Shown in pieces: positions 40,035 to 50,056 of a stretch of DNA of 64,000 nucleotides. Source of the DNA: Escherichia phage HY01; the sequence record NC_027349.1; one strand, 5' to 3'. Position 1 is the first letter of the stretch. Every line of letters begins with the position of its first letter. A model generated the notes under the pieces. The model saw only the letters and a program-made list of their open reading frames with translations. It did no database searches and was not told where the DNA came from. The translations under genes were made by a program, and so were the position numbers.

Positions 40035-40505
40035 TTAATCATGTTTCCACACCCCATCGGTATTTGACCAAAGTCGCTGATTATCTGAACCTCGCCACAG
40101 CTTTTTGGTCGGAAGATTTTTCTCATACTTCCCATCAATAATAACATCAACATATTTAAGCATTTCTAGTTGTTTAATATCTTCAAACTTATATCCTGTC
40201 CACAACCAAATGCTTTTATTCGGATAAAGATTTTTTACCGTTTGAACAATGCAATGAACATCATCTCGGTTATCAGGATAAAGAGGGTCTCCTCCAGTTA
40301 TAGTTAATCCTTCTATATAATCATTATTCAAACATTCAATTAATTGTTCTAGTGTTTCACCAGTAAATGGAACGCCATTTCTAGCATTCCATGTTGATTT
40401 ATTATAACACCCTTCACATTTATGCAAACACCCCGTAACGAAAAGAACGACCCTGCATCCAGGGCCATTCACAAAATCACAGGGATAAAATCTATCGTAA
40501 TTCAT
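40035..40505 (-). CDS. nrdG: anaerobic ribonucleotide reductase activating protein (radical SAM)
   Basis: 156 aa with CxxxCxxC-type cluster (GCLHKCEGC). Confidence 0.88.
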   Translation of the reverse strand: MNYDRFYPCDFVNGPGCRVVLFVTGCLHKCEGCYNKSTWNARNGVPFTGETLEQLIECLNNDYIEGLTITGGDPLYPDNRDDVHCIVQTVKNLYPNKSIWLWTGYKFEDIKQLEMLKYVDVIIDGKYEKNLPTKKLWRGSDNQRLWSNTDGVWKHD

Positions 40506-42319
40506 TGGTGTTTAACCCTATGCATGATTTCTTTATTTTTGCCAAGATTAAATCCGCGTTCGTTCGGATTTCCCAAATAGCCACATGTTCTTCTTATTGT
40601 GTTCATCTTTTTAGGATCAGTTTCTCCACAAATAGAACAAACAAATCCGTTTTCAGTAGGAGTCATTTCATGGGTACTTCCACACGTAAAACATTTATCT
40701 ACTGGCATATTAACACCAAAATAATCTAAATGTTGTGCAGCATAATCCCATACAGCCTCAAGGCCTTTTAAGTTATTTTTCATATCAGGAAGTTCAACAT
40801 AAGAAATGTGACCACCTGTCGCAATGAAATGATACGGTGCTTCGCGAGAAATCTTTTCAAATGGAGTAATATTTTCTTCTACTGAAACGTGGAAACTGTT
40901 AGTGTACCAGCCTTTATCAGTAACATCTTTTACACTTCCATATTTTTCGGTATCAAGTTTACAGAAGCGATAGCACAGGTTTTCAGCAGGAGTAGAATAC
41001 AAACTAAAAGCAAATCCGGTTCTTTCTGTCCATTGTTTAAGATGAGTATTCATTTTAGTTAAAATTTCTTGCCCAATATCACGACCGACAAGAATATTCA
41101 ATTCGTGAATACCAATGTATCCTAGGGACACTGAACTTCTACCGTTTTTAAATAACTCAATTATATCGTCATCAGGTTTAAGACGAACCCCGAATGCACC
41201 TTCTTGGTAAAGAATAGGAGCAACAGTAGCTTTAACTCCTTTTAAGGAACTAATTCTACACATCAATGCTTCAAAACATAAATCCATTCGCTCATTGAAC
41301 AATTCGGCAAATTTCTGTTCATTGAACTGTGTTCCAATATAAGAATCTAGCGCAATGCGAGGAAGATTCAGTGTTACAACACCAAGATTATTACGTCCAT
41401 CAAGAATTTCATTACCAGTCGAATCTTTCCATACACTCAAGAAACTACGACAACCCATTGGAGAAACAGGAATAGATGAACCGGTGATAGCTTTATTGTT
41501 CTTAGCCGAAATGATGTCAGGATACATTCTTTTACTTGCACACTCTAGAGCAAGCTGCTTAATATCATAGTTCGGATCGTCTTTATAAAGATTAACACCT
41601 TCTTCAACGAACATAACAAGTTTAGGGAAAATAGGAGTTATCCCGTCACGACCAAGGCCTTTAATACGATTTTTCAGAATTGCTTTCTGAATCATTCGTT
41701 CAGTCCAGTCAGTTCCCGTACCAAATGTAATTGTTACAAAAGGCGTTTGTCCGTTTGAACTAAAGAGAGTATTTACTTCATATTCATAAGCTTGGAATGC
41801 ATCGTATACGTCTTTTTCTGTTTTAGATTGGGCATAATTCAACGCATCAGCGATTTGCCATTTTTCTGCATCCTCAATATGTTTTGCATAGGTGCGTTTA
41901 ACATAAGGAGAAAGTACTTTATCTACATTCGCAAAAGTCGTTCCACCGTATTGATGGGAAGCAACCTGTGCAGTAATTTGTGCCATAATTGCAGTAGCAA
42001 CGCCGATTGATTTAGGAGTTTCAATCTGTGCATTACCGAGCTTAAATCCGTTCTCAAGCATTCCTTTTAAATCTACTAAACAGCAATTAGTAAATGGAAG
42101 AGCAGGGGAATAATCAATATCATGGAAATGAATAATTCCGCTTTCATGCGCTTTCATAATAAAAGACGGGACCATATTTTTGGCAATGTGTTTAGACACA
42201 ATACCAGCCATAAGGTCCCGTTGAGTTGGAAAAACACGAGAATCTTTATTAGCATTCTCGTTTAAAAGGTCTTTATTAGTTTTATGAATCAATCCTTCAA
42301 TTTCTTTTTCAATTGTCAT
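40502..42319 (-). CDS. nrdD: anaerobic ribonucleoside-triphosphate reductase (glycyl radical enzyme), uninterrupted
   Basis: 605-aa contiguous ORF with C-terminal glycyl-radical motif RTCGYLG and Zn ribbon CFTCGS...CSICG. Confidence 0.93.
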   Translation of the reverse strand: MTIEKEIEGLIHKTNKDLLNENANKDSRVFPTQRDLMAGIVSKHIAKNMVPSFIMKAHESGIIHFHDIDYSPALPFTNCCLVDLKGMLENGFKLGNAQIETPKSIGVATAIMAQITAQVASHQYGGTTFANVDKVLSPYVKRTYAKHIEDAEKWQIADALNYAQSKTEKDVYDAFQAYEYEVNTLFSSNGQTPFVTITFGTGTDWTERMIQKAILKNRIKGLGRDGITPIFPKLVMFVEEGVNLYKDDPNYDIKQLALECASKRMYPDIISAKNNKAITGSSIPVSPMGCRSFLSVWKDSTGNEILDGRNNLGVVTLNLPRIALDSYIGTQFNEQKFAELFNERMDLCFEALMCRISSLKGVKATVAPILYQEGAFGVRLKPDDDIIELFKNGRSSVSLGYIGIHELNILVGRDIGQEILTKMNTHLKQWTERTGFAFSLYSTPAENLCYRFCKLDTEKYGSVKDVTDKGWYTNSFHVSVEENITPFEKISREAPYHFIATGGHISYVELPDMKNNLKGLEAVWDYAAQHLDYFGVNMPVDKCFTCGSTHEMTPTENGFVCSICGETDPKKMNTIRRTCGYLGNPNERGFNLGKNKEIMHRVKHQ

Positions 42320-43007: not shown

Positions 43008-43472
43008 TTAAAATGCTCGGTCAGAAAAAGAAATTTGAGTTTCAAGCCATTCAATATATTCTGCCGCAGCTTGCATCAAATTTCCTTCATAGCCATCGTT
43101 GTTTTCTTGCGCAGCTAATTTAGCTAATGCATATGAAATGCGTTCACCTTGAAAAGCGGCTTTAGGTTTATGAATAGCTTGATCAACTCGTTCTACAACT
43201 TCTTCAATTTCGCCATTTTCTACTGATTCAGTATTCCATAAGCACCAATACGTAATTGGCTTATCGTAGATGTTAATAATCTTTCCATCAGAAAGTTCAA
43301 TTTCAATAATTCCAGTATCAGGTTCTATATCATCTTCGCATTCTTTTGCGAGTTCACGAACTTTAAAGACAGTACCTGCACTAAGTTCTGGCCAATAATT
43401 ACATAGCCCTTTATCAGCACGATTAATTCTAAACCACTTATCTACTGTAATCATGTCCCATCTCCATATCAA
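43008..43472 (-). CDS. hypothetical protein (possibly pin, Lon protease inhibitor, by position)
   Basis: 154-aa ORF upstream of gene 49. Confidence 0.35.
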   Translation of the reverse strand: MIWRWDMITVDKWFRINRADKGLCNYWPELSAGTVFKVRELAKECEDDIEPDTGIIEIELSDGKIINIYDKPITYWCLWNTESVENGEIEEVVERVDQAIHKPKAAFQGERISYALAKLAAQENNDGYEGNLMQAAAEYIEWLETQISFSDRAF

Positions 43473-43577: not shown

Positions 43578-43898
43578 TTATAGCGTAATCCATTCTCGTA
43601 TTGTCTGAATTACTACACGTTCACGGGGCTCGACTAGTTCAACAGTCGGAACTGCATAATACCAGTCAGAATGGTAAGAACCTGAGCGAGTTTCATTTAC
43701 AGACACATGAACGTTATGTTTTGGACTAAAATAAACGCACTGCCGATATTGGCATTTGCCGTCTTGTACCCAATCTTCTATTTCGATAGGTTTAAGATAA
43801 TCCGAAAAATCGAAATCATAATTTTCTGAAAATGCATCATGGTCTTCGATGATTTCACTCAGAACTGCATCAACATCTAATTTATTTTCAGTATTCAT
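43578..43898 (-). CDS. hypothetical protein
   Basis: 106-aa ORF. Confidence 0.4.
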   Translation of the reverse strand: MNTENKLDVDAVLSEIIEDHDAFSENYDFDFSDYLKPIEIEDWVQDGKCQYRQCVYFSPKHNVHVSVNETRSGSYHSDWYYAVPTVELVEPRERVVIQTIREWITL

Positions 43899-44816: not shown

Positions 44817-45105
44817 ATCGGTGTTTGCAATGACGACATTTATAACGAAGAATACTAGTCTGCCAATGAACTAATTGTACCTGTTCAGTACCGCATTCAG
44901 GACAACTAGGAACGTTTTTAGAAGCCCTTTCACGACGTTCAACCATAACCATAATGGCATCCCAAGCTGGAGGTTTAAAGTCTAAATCATCGCAACCATG
45001 AATCTTTCCACGCATTTCTAAATCGTCTTCTTCACCAGCCATAATAATTTTAATTAGACTGGAATTACTTGAAGCTGCAATATCTTCTAATAGACGCTTT
45101 TTCAT
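44788..45105 (-). CDS. nrdC.2: zinc-ribbon protein
   Basis: 105 aa with CPECG...CRHCKHRF (C2C2 zinc ribbon). Confidence 0.45.
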
Positions 45106-46031
45106 TTCAATACCTCAATAGCATTACGTAAACCATTTGCTTTTGCATTAAGAGCTTTTAACAATTTAGTGTGTTCGGCAATCTGAGCTTCAACTTCAAC
45201 TAGTCGAGATTTGAGGTATTCACGTTCTTCGCTCAAGTTATCAACCTTTTCTACTTTAGGTTCTTTTACAACTGGCTTATATGTATTAGGGTTCTTCAGT
45301 TTAATTAGAATGCGTGAACTGTATAACATTGAACCATTATCTTCGGTTTCGTCATACATTTCTACTACGTCCATGATTTTTAACATCATGCGGAGTTTAT
45401 AAGATAACGAACGAATAGTTTTGTTGTGCTTATTAATTTCTCTAGAGTTCATGGTGCCGAGATTACGTGAGTAATAATAAGGAACCTGGATATTAATTAA
45501 TACTGATGAACCACCTGGCTTATGTGTTACTTCATCAGCAATAACCCAATCCTTAACATGAACTGTATTTGTACGGTCATCGCCCGCGGTAAATAGTTTG
45601 CGAGCATGCTTAAAAAGCATATTCACTTGGTCATTGAATTGACAAGTAAATTTATCAGCAAATTTAGTTTCAGGAATGGTAGATAACCAATCAGCCAAAT
45701 GGGTCTTTTTAACATCGTTAACAATAGTAAATTCAACCAAATCAGTTATAGATGTCTCAGATTTAATAAAGCTCGGCTTCATAAAGTTTTTAATGTTATC
45801 GCGAGCTACAGTAGAAGATAACATACGAGAACGTTTAAACCATTGAAGCAAATTGCCTAATGAATGAGAATAGGCGTTCTGAGTATCTTTACAGATATGA
45901 TTTTCCTGCCCAACATATTGAAGGAAATCACGAAGAATATTATTGATTACTGCTCTGTGCCCGATTTGATAATTACGGTGTTTAGTAATAAGACTGTCAA
46001 AATAATCAATATAATGTTTACGAGTTTTCAT
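45102..46031 (-). CDS. member 1 of a tandem paralogous family with C-terminal coiled coil
   Basis: 309 aa; C-terminal heptad-rich tail; shares W..F..F+.Q.L..A.+L-type motif with the next three ORFs. Confidence 0.45.
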   Translation of the reverse strand: MKTRKHYIDYFDSLITKHRNYQIGHRAVINNILRDFLQYVGQENHICKDTQNAYSHSLGNLLQWFKRSRMLSSTVARDNIKNFMKPSFIKSETSITDLVEFTIVNDVKKTHLADWLSTIPETKFADKFTCQFNDQVNMLFKHARKLFTAGDDRTNTVHVKDWVIADEVTHKPGGSSVLINIQVPYYYSRNLGTMNSREINKHNKTIRSLSYKLRMMLKIMDVVEMYDETEDNGSMLYSSRILIKLKNPNTYKPVVKEPKVEKVDNLSEEREYLKSRLVEVEAQIAEHTKLLKALNAKANGLRNAIEVLK

Positions 46032-46083
46032 GTTCTTCTCACTTGGTTAATGATTTATACTCCGAGCCATCCTTGGCTTTAAA

Positions 46084-47136
46084 TTACTTAATTAACTGTA
46101 AAGCTTGTTCAAGACGATCCAGGCGATTAACAGATTCTTCCCAAATCCTTTTAGCCTGCTCATATTCTTTCTGCGCTTTATTAGAAATTTCTAGAGCTTC
46201 TTTATAAGCTTTTTCTAATGCAATAACTTCTGGACGAATTTCTACCGATTCAGGTGAATCATCAAGATTATCCATTAGTTCCTCAAGGGTAGTTTCTTCT
46301 TTAGGGGTATTCACAATTTCCTCACATTTTTGTTGGTAAATTTCTTTATCAGTAAGTGAGTACGCACATTTCACTTCACGAAGACTAACTACAATTTTAT
46401 ATCCTTCCCAACCGCACATATTCTTAAAAGGATAAGTATGAATATTTTCTACTGTTTCCATACAAAGTAATGCGGTTTCTAATTGACGAGTTATAGTGCT
46501 AGCAATTGAGAAAAATTTATTAATATTCTTTTGGTTAGTTTCTGGTGTAAAAAATCCATAATTCACAAAAATAGATACTTTATTTTTATCAAGTTCATAT
46601 TCTTTTATGATAATCATATCAGAAGCCAAAGGATGAATTTGACGATAATCGCCATAACATAATTTAGAAGCTGATTTTAGAATCTGTCCTTTGAAAAGTC
46701 TGAAATTACTAATCCAACGACGAGTAAAAATATTCTCAGGGTCTTCTTTATTATTAAGATGATAAGAATTAACATCACCGAACCAATTATATCCTACTAC
46801 ATCTTTAGTTCGTTTAATTTCTTTCCCAAATTTACCAAGAATATCCCGATTAACCAAATATGAAAGAAGACGAGACTCTTTAAAGGTTTTCTTGATAACA
46901 TCTTTATCTACACGGCTAGAAATTTTACGAATTTCATGAATAAATTTAGTAGAAGAAACAATACTTGCATCAACACTATTGAGCCATTGATTGATAATAG
47001 AAAGAACGATATTTTGGCCAAACATCGGTATAGCTTTATCATCAATAACGCTATTAAATGATTTGATATATTCGTCACGAGTCATATTAATCTCCTCAGT
47101 AGAAAGTAAGAACATTATACCACATCCTTGTGGCAA
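46084..47136 (-). CDS. member 2 of the tandem paralogous family
   Basis: 350-aa ORF (start possibly at internal MTRDEY); motif RRWISNFRLFKGQILKSASKL; coiled-coil tail. Confidence 0.45.
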   Translation of the reverse strand: MPQGCGIMFLLSTEEINMTRDEYIKSFNSVIDDKAIPMFGQNIVLSIINQWLNSVDASIVSSTKFIHEIRKISSRVDKDVIKKTFKESRLLSYLVNRDILGKFGKEIKRTKDVVGYNWFGDVNSYHLNNKEDPENIFTRRWISNFRLFKGQILKSASKLCYGDYRQIHPLASDMIIIKEYELDKNKVSIFVNYGFFTPETNQKNINKFFSIASTITRQLETALLCMETVENIHTYPFKNMCGWEGYKIVVSLREVKCAYSLTDKEIYQQKCEEIVNTPKEETTLEELMDNLDDSPESVEIRPEVIALEKAYKEALEISNKAQKEYEQAKRIWEESVNRLDRLEQALQLIK

Positions 47137-47142
47137 AGTAAA

Positions 47143-48159
47143 CTAGTTTAGTGCATTTAGTGCATTGTTCAGTTTAGAACGTTGCTTCGTAAGATTTTTG
47201 ACTTTTTCTTGAGCTTTTTCTAGCATCTTTTCAGCTTCTAACACTTCATTAGTTGCTTTAACTAGTTCATCATCTACTGCTTTAAGAGAATTCTCAATCG
47301 CATCTGCATGCCATTTTTCAACAGGTTTAAGACTCGGATTTTCAACAGGAAGAAAATTCACTTTATTGAATTTCCATGCATCCTTATTACCTGAACTATA
47401 CATCCAAAATTTAGGATCGTTTGATGAGTAATTGGATAAATTTAAATTTAAGTTATCTTGCACTTCTTGCTTTTTCTCTTGCGTGACTTCATCCTTTCTC
47501 AAAAAATCGTATTTAAATGAAACGATCATATCAAGTTCATATGTTGTTGTGTCTAATAAACGAGGTAAAATCTTAGACTGAACAGCGGCAACAACATCCA
47601 TATACTTAAATGCTTCTGTCAACTGCGATTTAAGGCATTCGCAAATTGAAAGAGAATTTTTTGTATTAGGTTTAAAGCTAATTCGTGCAGTTCTGTTATT
47701 TTCTTTTAATGGTCTTACTTCCATCTGAAGAGTATAACCATCAAATTTCAAGTTCTTTAAGTTAATATCAGAACCTTTTAATCGACTCGCAGTTGATAAA
47801 ATTTGCTTTAATTGTCTACGGAACAGAGCAATAAATCTCCATTCAATACGATAATGATTTGGATTGAAAAATCCAGATGATAAATCGACCTTACTTTGAC
47901 CAACGCCTTGAACAAATAAAGGATTTTTATAATCAATAGTTTTACAGAAATCGGTGAGTTGCTCACGAGCAGTCATTTGTGTAATATATCCCGCTTTACT
48001 AAAATTACGCACCCATTCACTGCTATTCGTATACTTAAAGTGATGAATAACACGATTAACTTTATCAGGGTCTAAATTATTTTCACACAAAAATGTCATA
48101 ACATCACAAGTATAACTGGCATTACGAACCATATCTTCAATTTGAGAACGAGTTTTCAT
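47143..48159 (-). CDS. member 3 of the tandem paralogous family
   Basis: 338 aa; motif RIEWRFIALFRRQLKQILSTASRLKG; coiled-coil tail. Confidence 0.45.
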   Translation of the reverse strand: MKTRSQIEDMVRNASYTCDVMTFLCENNLDPDKVNRVIHHFKYTNSSEWVRNFSKAGYITQMTAREQLTDFCKTIDYKNPLFVQGVGQSKVDLSSGFFNPNHYRIEWRFIALFRRQLKQILSTASRLKGSDINLKNLKFDGYTLQMEVRPLKENNRTARISFKPNTKNSLSICECLKSQLTEAFKYMDVVAAVQSKILPRLLDTTTYELDMIVSFKYDFLRKDEVTQEKKQEVQDNLNLNLSNYSSNDPKFWMYSSGNKDAWKFNKVNFLPVENPSLKPVEKWHADAIENSLKAVDDELVKATNEVLEAEKMLEKAQEKVKNLTKQRSKLNNALNALN

Positions 48160-48167
48160 AGTGTTCC

Positions 48168-49094
48168 TTAAGATTTAAGTAAATCAACAATTTTAATTAA
48201 TTTTTCACGCTCAGATTTAGCTTTATTACTCAATCCAGATAGTCTGAAAATTTCATCGTCATACTGTTGAATAGAAATATTCAGCTCTTCAATTTGCTTA
48301 TTAAAATAATCAATTTGTTCAGAATGTTTTTCATTACTACGAACTGGTACAGGTTTTGTAGGCAATTTAGTTGAACTGGATTCATCCGGGCGATAAATTA
48401 AAATACAACTTGAACCAATCGGGCATTTAGCACCAGACGTATATTCTAATGTTCCAGCTTCTTTTAAAACTTCAAAAGCTAAACAGAGATGATGCCCCAT
48501 ATTAGCATAATCTGTAGAGTGAGCTCTGATGTAATAATCATCTCCACGAATACTAAATTTAAAGCATTTAAGGTCTTCTGTATTATTGGTCTTAAAAATC
48601 ATTTGTTTATCTAGACCTTTAGCTAATCGAGCGCCTAATGCTAATAATCGTCTTTGATTTTCCCACAAATCCGCTATCATTTGATCGAATGATAATTTTG
48701 GCATCAGTCGACCATAAAGGTCATATCCTTTATTATAATTACGAAGGATTTCACTCGCGTTAATACGAGACAATGCTCCAATTTTATTAAGGGCTTTCAT
48801 AATGCGATTAGATAAACTCATTCCAGATCCGCTTGTTCGCTGCAAATGTTTTTCTAATCCAAATCCAATATCAACTTTAAACTTATCTAAAATTTCGGCA
48901 TGAACATCTTTATCAATAACATTCAAATCCAAAGTTGGGTTAAATCTATGAAAAAATTTATCTGGCTCTCCACGACGAAGTACAGTCCATTCATTCATCA
49001 TTTTTTTATTAACTAAAGATTTAATTACTGCATTGACATTATTAATTACTACTGACATATTTTCCTCACTCAATTTCAATTTTACTAAATACAC
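48168..49094 (-). CDS. member 4 of the tandem paralogous family
   Basis: 308 aa; motif LWENQRRLLALGARLAKGL; coiled-coil tail. Confidence 0.45.
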   Translation of the reverse strand: MYLVKLKLSEENMSVVINNVNAVIKSLVNKKMMNEWTVLRRGEPDKFFHRFNPTLDLNVIDKDVHAEILDKFKVDIGFGLEKHLQRTSGSGMSLSNRIMKALNKIGALSRINASEILRNYNKGYDLYGRLMPKLSFDQMIADLWENQRRLLALGARLAKGLDKQMIFKTNNTEDLKCFKFSIRGDDYYIRAHSTDYANMGHHLCLAFEVLKEAGTLEYTSGAKCPIGSSCILIYRPDESSSTKLPTKPVPVRSNEKHSEQIDYFNKQIEELNISIQQYDDEIFRLSGLSNKAKSEREKLIKIVDLLKS

Positions 49095-49528: not shown

Positions 49529-50056
49529 TTATGCGAGTACCGTCTTTAACCGTTCTTCAAACTTCCGAAGAGTATTTTGGCGTTCAGCTCTTTGCTTTTT
49601 GTAAGTTTCAATACGCTCTGAAATGAGAGTGTATCGTTCATTTACTGATTCTTTCATAAAATCAGGAATTTCACGAGAAGCTTTAATCTCATCAAATTTA
49701 TCAATAACAGCTTGCTCTTCAGCAATTAAGTTATCATACATTAAAATATCTTTCTTGATGAACTCAATATCTTCTTGAGTTACACGAGATAATTTAGATG
49801 CTTTATCCTTTTTGTACTGTTCGTTAGTATCACGAGACCAATGTAATGTACGATTTTTATTCGTATTCTTGTAAATTTCTACAATACCAATCTCATCGAT
49901 AATAACGATCCAATTCCAACGGGATTTATAAATTTGTCCTCCATCAACTGTGATTTCACCTCCGATTGAGATGTCATTAAAGAACTTGCTTTGTGCTTCA
50001 GATTTAAATTTACCATCGTTGTAATTTACCAAGTTGAAAATATCTTTAGCATTCAT
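49529..50056 (-). CDS. hypothetical protein
   Basis: 175-aa ORF with an early promoter upstream. Confidence 0.4.
   Translation of the reverse strand: MNAKDIFNLVNYNDGKFKSEAQSKFFNDISIGGEITVDGGQIYKSRWNWIVIIDEIGIVEIYKNTNKNRTLHWSRDTNEQYKKDKASKLSRVTQEDIEFIKKDILMYDNLIAEEQAVIDKFDEIKASREIPDFMKESVNERYTLISERIETYKKQRAERQNTLRKFEERLKTVLA

Follow-up and report, generated by a model that had tools for sequence, protein, structure and literature searches.

Genes nrdC.3 to nrdC.6 of Escherichia phage HY01 are tandem remote paralogs and candidate early counter-defense genes of T4-like phages

Escherichia phage HY01 (sequence record NC_027349.1) carries, in the stretch of 64,000 nucleotides that we analyzed (hereafter the window), a quartet of consecutive open reading frames (ORFs) on the minus strand, located at 45102-46031, 46084-47136, 47143-48159, and 48168-49094. 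The 3,993 bases of this region are 100% identical to those of Escherichia phage PEC04, a T4-like Tequatrovirus, and 655 records of T4-like phages match the region at 80% identity or more. A preliminary description of this DNA had proposed a comparison with nrdC.3-nrdC.6 of T4, and the T4 reference annotation indeed holds the same genes in the same order, which identifies the four ORFs as nrdC.3, nrdC.4, nrdC.5, and nrdC.6. The block is flanked by nrdC.2 and by nrdC.7, which codes for a small membrane protein. We found that their products are paralogs of one family, of ancient origin and strongly diverged, with nrdC.6 as a probable, more remote member, and we argue below that the array is probably an early-expressed set of inhibitors directed against host defense proteins. 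The genes and the promoter predicted within the block are the following.

45102-46031, minus strand: nrdC.3 homolog (paralog A), 309 amino acids; full-length match to phrog_1435 (E=3.6e-116), syntenic with T4 nrdC.3
46084-47085, minus strand: nrdC.4 (paralog B), 333 amino acids; full-length match to phrog_1435 (E=5e-167) that begins at position 18 of the 350-amino-acid reading; the ATG is preceded by a GAGGAG Shine-Dalgarno sequence
47114-47142, minus strand: predicted T4 early-like promoter directly upstream of nrdC.4; GTTTAC, 17 nucleotides, TGgTATAAT, with 10/12 matches and an extended -10 (promoter scan)
47143-48159, minus strand: nrdC.5 (paralog C), ortholog of the T4 anti-Dsr1 gene, 338 amino acids; Pfam DUF7235 (PF23882), E=2e-122
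48168-49058, minus strand: nrdC.6 (paralog D), 296 amino acids; full-length match to phrog_2257 (E=2.6e-151) from residue 13 of the long ORF

The preliminary description had listed four consecutive ORFs of 309, 350, 338, and 308 amino acids. Their succession and coordinates were exact, but the readings of 350 and 308 were over-extended, and the corrected lengths of nrdC.3, nrdC.4, nrdC.5, and nrdC.6 are 309, 333, 338, and 296 amino acids. The start of nrdC.4 is the ATG at 47085, while the 350-amino-acid reading extends to a TTG at 47136 that lies within the predicted promoter; nrdC.6 starts with the ATG at 49058, and its 308-amino-acid reading begins at an upstream GTG. The Shine-Dalgarno sequences, the family profiles, and the annotations of PEC04 and T4 agree on both ATG starts. 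As for nrdC.5, the product of 47143-48159 shares 96.4% amino acid identity with that of T4 nrdC.5, at a ratio of nonsynonymous to synonymous substitution rates (dN/dS) of 0.07, and the gene lies between nrdC.6 and nrdC.4 as it does in T4. With a match to the DUF7235 profile of 408.9 bits (cut-off 30) that covers residues 1-338, this position and this identity make it the ortholog of T4 nrdC.5. Homologs of nrdC.4 carry PF26897, and 105 homologs of nrdC.6 carry PF26899.

All four proteins have a common build, in which a globular part, consisting of a variable N-terminal helical region and an α/β core that bears the shared motifs, is followed by a flexible linker and an amphipathic, heptad-patterned C-terminal helix of 45-60 residues. 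In a heptad scan, the best window of 35 residues of each protein fell in its last ~50 residues, with a hydrophobic occupancy of the a and d positions of 0.9-1.0. The observed score was reached by 0/200 shuffles for nrdC.5, 6/200 for nrdC.6, 19/200 for nrdC.4, and 53/200 for nrdC.3. AlphaFold2 predicted one long terminal helix in nrdC.4 (residues 285-332) and in nrdC.5 (residues 279-337), the latter with a predicted local distance difference test score (pLDDT) of 71-94 and an a/d occupancy of 1.0. Within each family the tails are conserved equally to or better than the remainder of the protein, and in distant nrdC.5 orthologs the tail is shorter by exactly 7 residues, that is, by a deletion of one heptad. 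The terminal pattern L..[AS][LIVM]..[LIM][KNL] was present in nrdC.3, nrdC.4, and nrdC.5 only, among the 97 ORFs of at least 80 amino acids in the window. The helices map as follows.

45105-45245, minus strand: heptad helix of nrdC.3, amino acids 263-309, ending in ...LRNAIEVLK; best heptad window, tail kept in both alleles
46087-46233, minus strand: heptad helix of nrdC.4, amino acids 285-333, ending in ...LEQALQLIK; nearly invariant among orthologs of 40% identity
47146-47325, minus strand: heptad helix of nrdC.5, amino acids 279-338, ending in ...LNNALNALN; AlphaFold2 helix and heptad scan
48171-48329, minus strand: heptad helix of nrdC.6, amino acids 244-296, ending in ...LIKIVDLLKS; DDEIFRL...LLK invariant in the family

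Two further observations concern these tails. The T4 reference nrdC.6 (L001 8067-8894, the counterpart of 48168-49058 in the window) codes for 275 amino acids and ends with ~16 residues (IFLFNNMMMKFSDYLD) that correspond to the conserved NISIQQYDDEIFRLSG read in the +1 frame. It is thus without the coiled-coil tail kept by PEC04 and more than 100 relatives. Either a genuine mutation or an old error in sequencing could account for this frameshift. Outside the quartet, nrdC.8 (49529-50056, minus strand, 175 amino acids) has a strongly heptad-patterned terminal helix (1/200 shuffles) that ends in ...FEERLKTVLA. We rejected nrdC.8 as a fifth member, as its sole similarity to the quartet was a 43-column match in the tail with a score of 18.6 and none was detectable outside it.

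The paralogy comparisons were made with the globular parts only, that is, with the tails removed, using profiles enriched with secure divergent members and column-shuffle nulls. The profiles of nrdC.3 and nrdC.4 aligned with a probability of 98.5% and E=3.5e-15 (hhalign), and plain BLASTP also linked the two proteins (E=1e-7). Between nrdC.4 and nrdC.5 the probability was 92% (E=5e-7, 215 columns), and earlier tail-less profiles of the same pair had scored 37.8 against a null of 14.5±2.5 with a maximum of 22.2, a value attained by 0/150 shuffles. The signal between nrdC.5 and nrdC.6 was weak, with a score of 28.4 against 13.8±2.7 (maximum 23.3, 0/100 shuffles), and the score of nrdC.4 with nrdC.6 was reached by 2/100 shuffles. 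When the quartet was set among 21 ortholog families from the same neighborhoods, the best non-self matches of each of its profiles were its other members. The nrdC.4–nrdC.5 and nrdC.5–nrdC.6 alignments are anchored on three collinear motifs, namely SRxL..V.RD.L..F upstream, a central motif, and I.FKPN or I.FKTN downstream. Two of them were located in all four genes by profile-profile alignment.

46642-46704, minus strand: motif 2 (the shared central motif) of nrdC.4, FRLFKGQILKSASKLCYGDYR, within model helix 119-140; the segments of the four proteins are mutually aligned
45573-45638, 47767-47823, and 48603-48668, minus strand: equivalents of motif 2 in nrdC.3, nrdC.5, and nrdC.6
46828-46875, minus strand: motif 1 (the upstream shared motif) of nrdC.4, SRLLSYLVNRDILGKF
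45783-45830, 47947-47994, and 48735-48782, minus strand: equivalents of motif 1 in nrdC.3, nrdC.5, and nrdC.6

Predicted structures point in the same direction. We compared the AlphaFold2 model of nrdC.4 (pLDDT 82) with BFVD using Foldseek and obtained 16 matches at E<=1e-3, each to a protein of Straboviridae; short fragments of nrdC.4 account for two of them, and the others, of 228-374 amino acids, include an nrdC.3-like protein and the BFVD model of JS10 nrdC.6 (E=7.9e-5, probability 1.0). No generic coiled-coil protein is in this list. Any two of the families share 25% identity or less. We found no DNA-level repeat between the four genes, so the duplications are ancient, and a recent duplication or gene conversion was rejected on the same ground. 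The preliminary description had seen in these genes a globular domain with a heptad-rich C-terminal tail, a shared central motif, and a family expanded inside the nrdC region, and our results bear it out: the tail, of 45-60 amino acids, was recovered by the heptad scan in all four proteins and as AlphaFold2 helices in nrdC.4 and nrdC.5, the central motif anchors the profile alignments, and BLASTP, tail-less profiles, and Foldseek identify remote paralogs whose similarity extends beyond the coiled coil, as the values for nrdC.3–nrdC.4 and nrdC.4–nrdC.5 demonstrate. Profiles enriched with two Yersinia phage proteins gave stronger links for nrdC.6 (78% for nrdC.3–nrdC.6), but we did not rely on them because the family assignment of both sequences is weak and the signal fell after their removal.

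Members of the family were found in 536-740 phage records across Straboviridae, and the family appears to be confined to these T4-like phages. The order nrdC.6-nrdC.5-(nrdC.4 and/or nrdC.3) is kept in Tequatrovirus, Mosigvirus, Gaprivervirus, and other T-even-like phages; the order nrdC.6-nrdC.5-nrdC.4 is retained in relatives down to 25-50% identity, and nrdC.6 and nrdC.5 remain neighbors from genus to genus. Both nrdC.3 and nrdC.4 are present in Tequatrovirus, and Mosigvirus has nrdC.6, nrdC.5, and an nrdC.3-type gene that replaces nrdC.4. Acinetobacter phage Acj61 carries adjacent genes of 304 and 330 amino acids with coiled-coil tails (L016 13745-15765; Acj61p121 and p120), which sit between nrdC.10 and nrdC with one more gene separating the pair from nrdC; the product of the 330-amino-acid gene has the same length as the Acj61 BFVD match. 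Yersinia phage fHe-Yen9-01 has one nrdC.5-like and one nrdC.6-like member (L017 8943-9884 and 15929-16807; gp111 and gp94).

Several variants of this arrangement were also observed. Distant Straboviridae have genes for 290-330 amino acids with the same build, whose tails end in L..AL..[LM] or L..SL..LK, and two of these genes agree with BFVD matches of the nrdC.4 model in both the phage and the length of the protein. The accession numbers of the BFVD matches E5EYP0 and E5EYP1 are consecutive, a hint of another tandem pair. In other T-even-like genera, including Gaprivervirus, a hydrophobic ORF of 71 amino acids lies between nrdC.6 and nrdC.5 (L008 8829-9044, L014 8942-9157), and the same relatives are without the nrdC.7 membrane protein gene, which in Tequatrovirus is upstream of nrdC.6. 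In the protein P0113, encoded on a contig of ~167 kb, residues 146-270 of nrdC.5 are fused to residues ~129-309 of nrdC.3 and nrdC.4 is deleted, and P0114 (Shigella phage Sf25) is an nrdC.6 in which ~82 internal residues are duplicated in tandem.

We estimated dN/dS over whole genes, with T4 and three further relatives for comparison. The values were 0.09-0.28 for nrdC.3, 0.21-0.24 for nrdC.4, 0.07-0.15 for nrdC.5, and 0.07-0.16 for nrdC.6, compared to about 0-0.02 for the core genes nrdD, gene 49, and nrdC. They indicate relaxed yet purifying selection on genes that are maintained but evolve fast. Gene-wide positive selection was not seen, as no whole-gene dN/dS exceeded 0.28. At nrdC.3, two deeply diverged alleles segregate in Tequatrovirus, 60-61% identical in amino acids and with saturated dS (window 45102-46031, L020 9191-10141, and L001 4934-5860 were compared). 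The nrdC.3 shared by the window and PEC04 has 60% identity with the T4 allele and 79% with the Mosigvirus moha_91 allele, and it is a mosaic: over its first ~60 residues it resembles T4, and from there on it is closest to moha_91. On sequence grounds, this mosaic suggests exchange between genera. The quartet had been called diversifying, a term that fits the divergence between genera and between the nrdC.3 alleles (61%) but not the mode of selection, which at dN/dS 0.07-0.28 is purifying.

The function of one member has been established in T4. Srikant et al. (eLife 2022, PMC9391042) found that a T4 clone with deletions in its accessory genome no longer plated on ECOR17, that disruption of dsr1 in ECOR17 restored the plating of this clone, and that plating on dsr1-carrying MG1655 was recovered when T4 nrdC.5 was expressed. 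They termed nrdC.5 an early gene, and the region is dispensable in T4 (PMC9391042). Dsr1 is a SIR2-domain, NAD+-depleting abortive-infection protein, and the sensor of EcDsr1, common to Avs7, is reported to be triggered by the phage major capsid protein (2026 Nature paper, PMC13581612). Srikant et al. treated T4 nrdC.5 as a lone uncharacterized early gene (PMC9391042); in our analysis, it belongs to a set of four tandem, remote paralogs and to a Straboviridae-wide family. The genes and the function of nrdC.5 were thus already known, and it is the link of nrdC.5 to its three neighbors in one superfamily, together with the fold resemblance discussed below, that appears to be undescribed.

The array is best read as an early-expressed counter-defense family because T4 nrdC.5 experimentally neutralizes Dsr1. 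We assign a probability of roughly 55% to this reading, in which the products are direct protein inhibitors, the shared tail oligomerizes, and the diverged globular parts retarget. The array would be transcribed early, and each paralog would act as a non-enzymatic, stoichiometric protein inhibitor that is made ahead of the late virion proteins. Such an inhibitor would bind a host defense protein, in the case of nrdC.5 Dsr1, and prevent its activation; the conserved tail would oligomerize the inhibitor, and the diverged globular parts would give the paralogs different targets. As nrdC.5 is known to disarm Dsr1, nrdC.3, nrdC.4, and nrdC.6 are good counter-defense candidates. The suggestion of the preliminary description that these are host-takeover or anti-defense effectors is therefore sustained for nrdC.5, through the action of its T4 ortholog against Dsr1 (PMC9391042), and stands as a prediction for the other three.

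The array resembles other known systems in its logic. The gp49.2 protein inhibits the OLD defense (PMC13096335), and its gene is a 106-amino-acid ORF at 43578-43898 (minus strand) of the window, ~1.2 kb downstream of the array. Like gp49.2 and the dmd-tifA-adfA 'anti-TA (toxin-antitoxin) island', nrdC.3-nrdC.6 would be small, early, dispensable, grouped genes, with one defense each; those genes are unrelated in sequence among themselves, whereas nrdC.3-nrdC.6 share a single ancestor. A functional analog is DSAD1, the anti-DSR2 protein of SPbeta-like phages, which silences by direct binding a SIR2 NADase with a sensor that recognizes a virion protein. Profile searches of PDB at E<=10 gave no sequence similarity of the nrdC families to the solved DSAD1 chains. 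The gene pin, which codes for a Lon protease inhibitor, lies at about 43008-43454, and pin, gp49.2, and nrdC.5 together make this a stretch rich in counter-defense genes.

Several points weigh against this interpretation and should be considered. The direct binding of Dsr1 by nrdC.5 is an assumption, because our literature search, in which DSR1 is described as 'poorly characterized', returned no account of the mechanism of nrdC.5; nor did it return anything on nrdC.3, nrdC.4, or nrdC.6, whose anti-defense role is a prediction. The oligomerizing role of the tail is likewise predicted, and the frameshifted tail of the T4 reference nrdC.6, if real, makes the tail dispensable in the laboratory. 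The AlphaFold2 model of nrdC.5 is poor (pLDDT 50), with an alignment that held only orthologs of at least 78% identity; even at this low confidence, it still shares the Foldseek targets CBH8 and Cronus with the nrdC.4 model. As to the unity of the family, the link of nrdC.6 is remote and rests on a predicted structure and a weak profile signal, and the globular parts of nrdC.3 and nrdC.6 compare at chance level, with no signal in the enriched tail-less profiles. A HMMER search of 1.84 billion proteins with the nrdC.4+nrdC.3 profile yielded 9 matches, all nrdC.4- or nrdC.3-like, and did not reach nrdC.5 or nrdC.6. Pfam and PHROGs separate the families because HMMER alone cannot bridge them.

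The alternative that survives best, possible though clearly less probable than the reading we favor, is that only nrdC.5 is a counter-defense gene and that nrdC.3, nrdC.4, and nrdC.6 reuse the scaffold for early host takeover, binding housekeeping proteins and not immune proteins. With an identity between families of at most 25% their targets could be anything, the literature is silent on all three, and the early genes nearby are of mixed role, pin being an example. Nevertheless, the sole tested member is anti-defense, other counter-defense genes surround the locus, and the locus undergoes allele replacement and mosaicism and is dispensable on laboratory hosts, as is typical of counter-defense genes.

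A second alternative starts from the fold. The α/β core could be a co-opted tail-terminator or tail-completion domain, the proteins being virion-protein mimics, early decoys that occupy virion-protein sensors (for example, Avs proteins that sense the tail terminator, or other receptors that sense structure) without activating them. Fold matches of the core to structural proteins were indeed obtained, but at Z <8 and for a simple α/β sandwich, with nitroreductase-like proteins in the same list and capsid proteins absent from the top matches, and confidence in the nrdC.5 model is low. Judged from models, the likeness to tail terminators would be a resemblance and not membership. No match to a tail terminator or tail completion family was found in Pfam, PHROG, or NCBIfam, even at E<=1, and the nrdC proteins have no sequence similarity to lambda gpU, T5 p142, SPP1 gp17-like proteins, the gene transfer agent (GTA) terminator, or DUF3168. 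In contrast to these terminators and completion proteins, they are 2-3 times longer, with an extra N-terminal helical region and a coiled-coil tail, and their genes, in a part of the genome that is dispensable and outside the tail gene cluster, follow a predicted early-type promoter. The T6 RefSeq label of nrdC.5, 'tail sheath stabilizer and completion protein', was rejected as a transitive mis-annotation because it was copied from a record that also mislabels a neighboring gene. Moreover, what triggers Dsr1, the one target known, is the major capsid protein rather than a tail protein, and for this reason a simple terminator decoy for Dsr1 is not supported. We consider virion mimicry doubtful on these grounds. 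The same holds for a more elaborate version, equally unlikely, in which a tail-terminator-type domain was fused to a coiled-coil helix and expanded into early decoys, each of which jams a different shape-sensing receptor (Dsr1/Avs7-type or other Avs-type); under it, the paralogs might form mixed oligomers through their related tails.

It could also be argued that this is not a four-member family at all, and that nrdC.6 is unrelated to the others, its likeness residing in coiled-coil composition, similar length, and the eye of the reader. The first, unenriched profiles of nrdC.6 gave z<=1.4 against each of the other three, to which the chance-level comparison with nrdC.3, the HMMER search without matches across families, and the separation in Pfam and PHROGs can be added. 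However, the Foldseek match of the nrdC.4 model to JS10 nrdC.6 came from a list with no generic coiled-coil proteins, the tail-less nrdC.5–nrdC.6 score exceeds those of all 100 shuffles, with the three collinear motifs as anchors, the best non-self matches among the 21 local families are quartet members, and nrdC.6 and nrdC.5 stay adjacent across genera. Taken together, this makes an unrelated nrdC.6 improbable. Finally, the proteins are very unlikely to be enzymes that, for example, rebuild or protect NAD+ and so beat Dsr1 metabolically rather than by binding, even though NAD+-reconstitution pathways are known to defeat DSR1, considering that Pfam and NCBIfam returned no enzyme family and PDB no sequence relative, that the fold matches are structural proteins, and that no invariant catalytic-type residues are found across the four families, in which only K/R/G/D positions on helix surfaces recur. 

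In the wider searches, none of the four proteins matched an enzyme or defense family in Pfam, NCBIfam, or PADLOC, and PDB chain searches with the nrdC.4/nrdC.3, nrdC.5, and nrdC.6 family profiles gave no relevant chain at E<=10. Matches to designed helical repeats, SMC, and BrxC were dismissed as helix or coiled-coil noise.

Sensors of virion proteins of the Dsr1 and Avs types are widespread, and few phage inhibitors of them are known, nrdC.5 being the sole anti-Dsr1 gene reported. The three tandem remote paralogs of nrdC.5 are three concrete new counter-defense candidates in the best-studied phage. Their common scaffold, a core with a coiled-coil tail, offers a frame for structure-function work and a natural model for studying how a single inhibitor fold is retargeted to different immune proteins. 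For annotation, our results suggest uniting three Pfam DUF-type families, and two or three PHROGs, that are now kept separate.

Two observations outside this argument remain. The sequence TATAAAT at 46053-46059 (minus strand), ~20 nucleotides upstream of the nrdC.3 start, resembles the core of a T4 late promoter and is preceded by a short GC-rich hairpin at 46062-46076; therefore, nrdC.3 might also be transcribed late. Farther downstream, nrdD (40502-42319, minus strand) is one uninterrupted ORF of 605 amino acids in the window, whereas the T4 reference nrdD is split by a group I intron that bears I-TevII.

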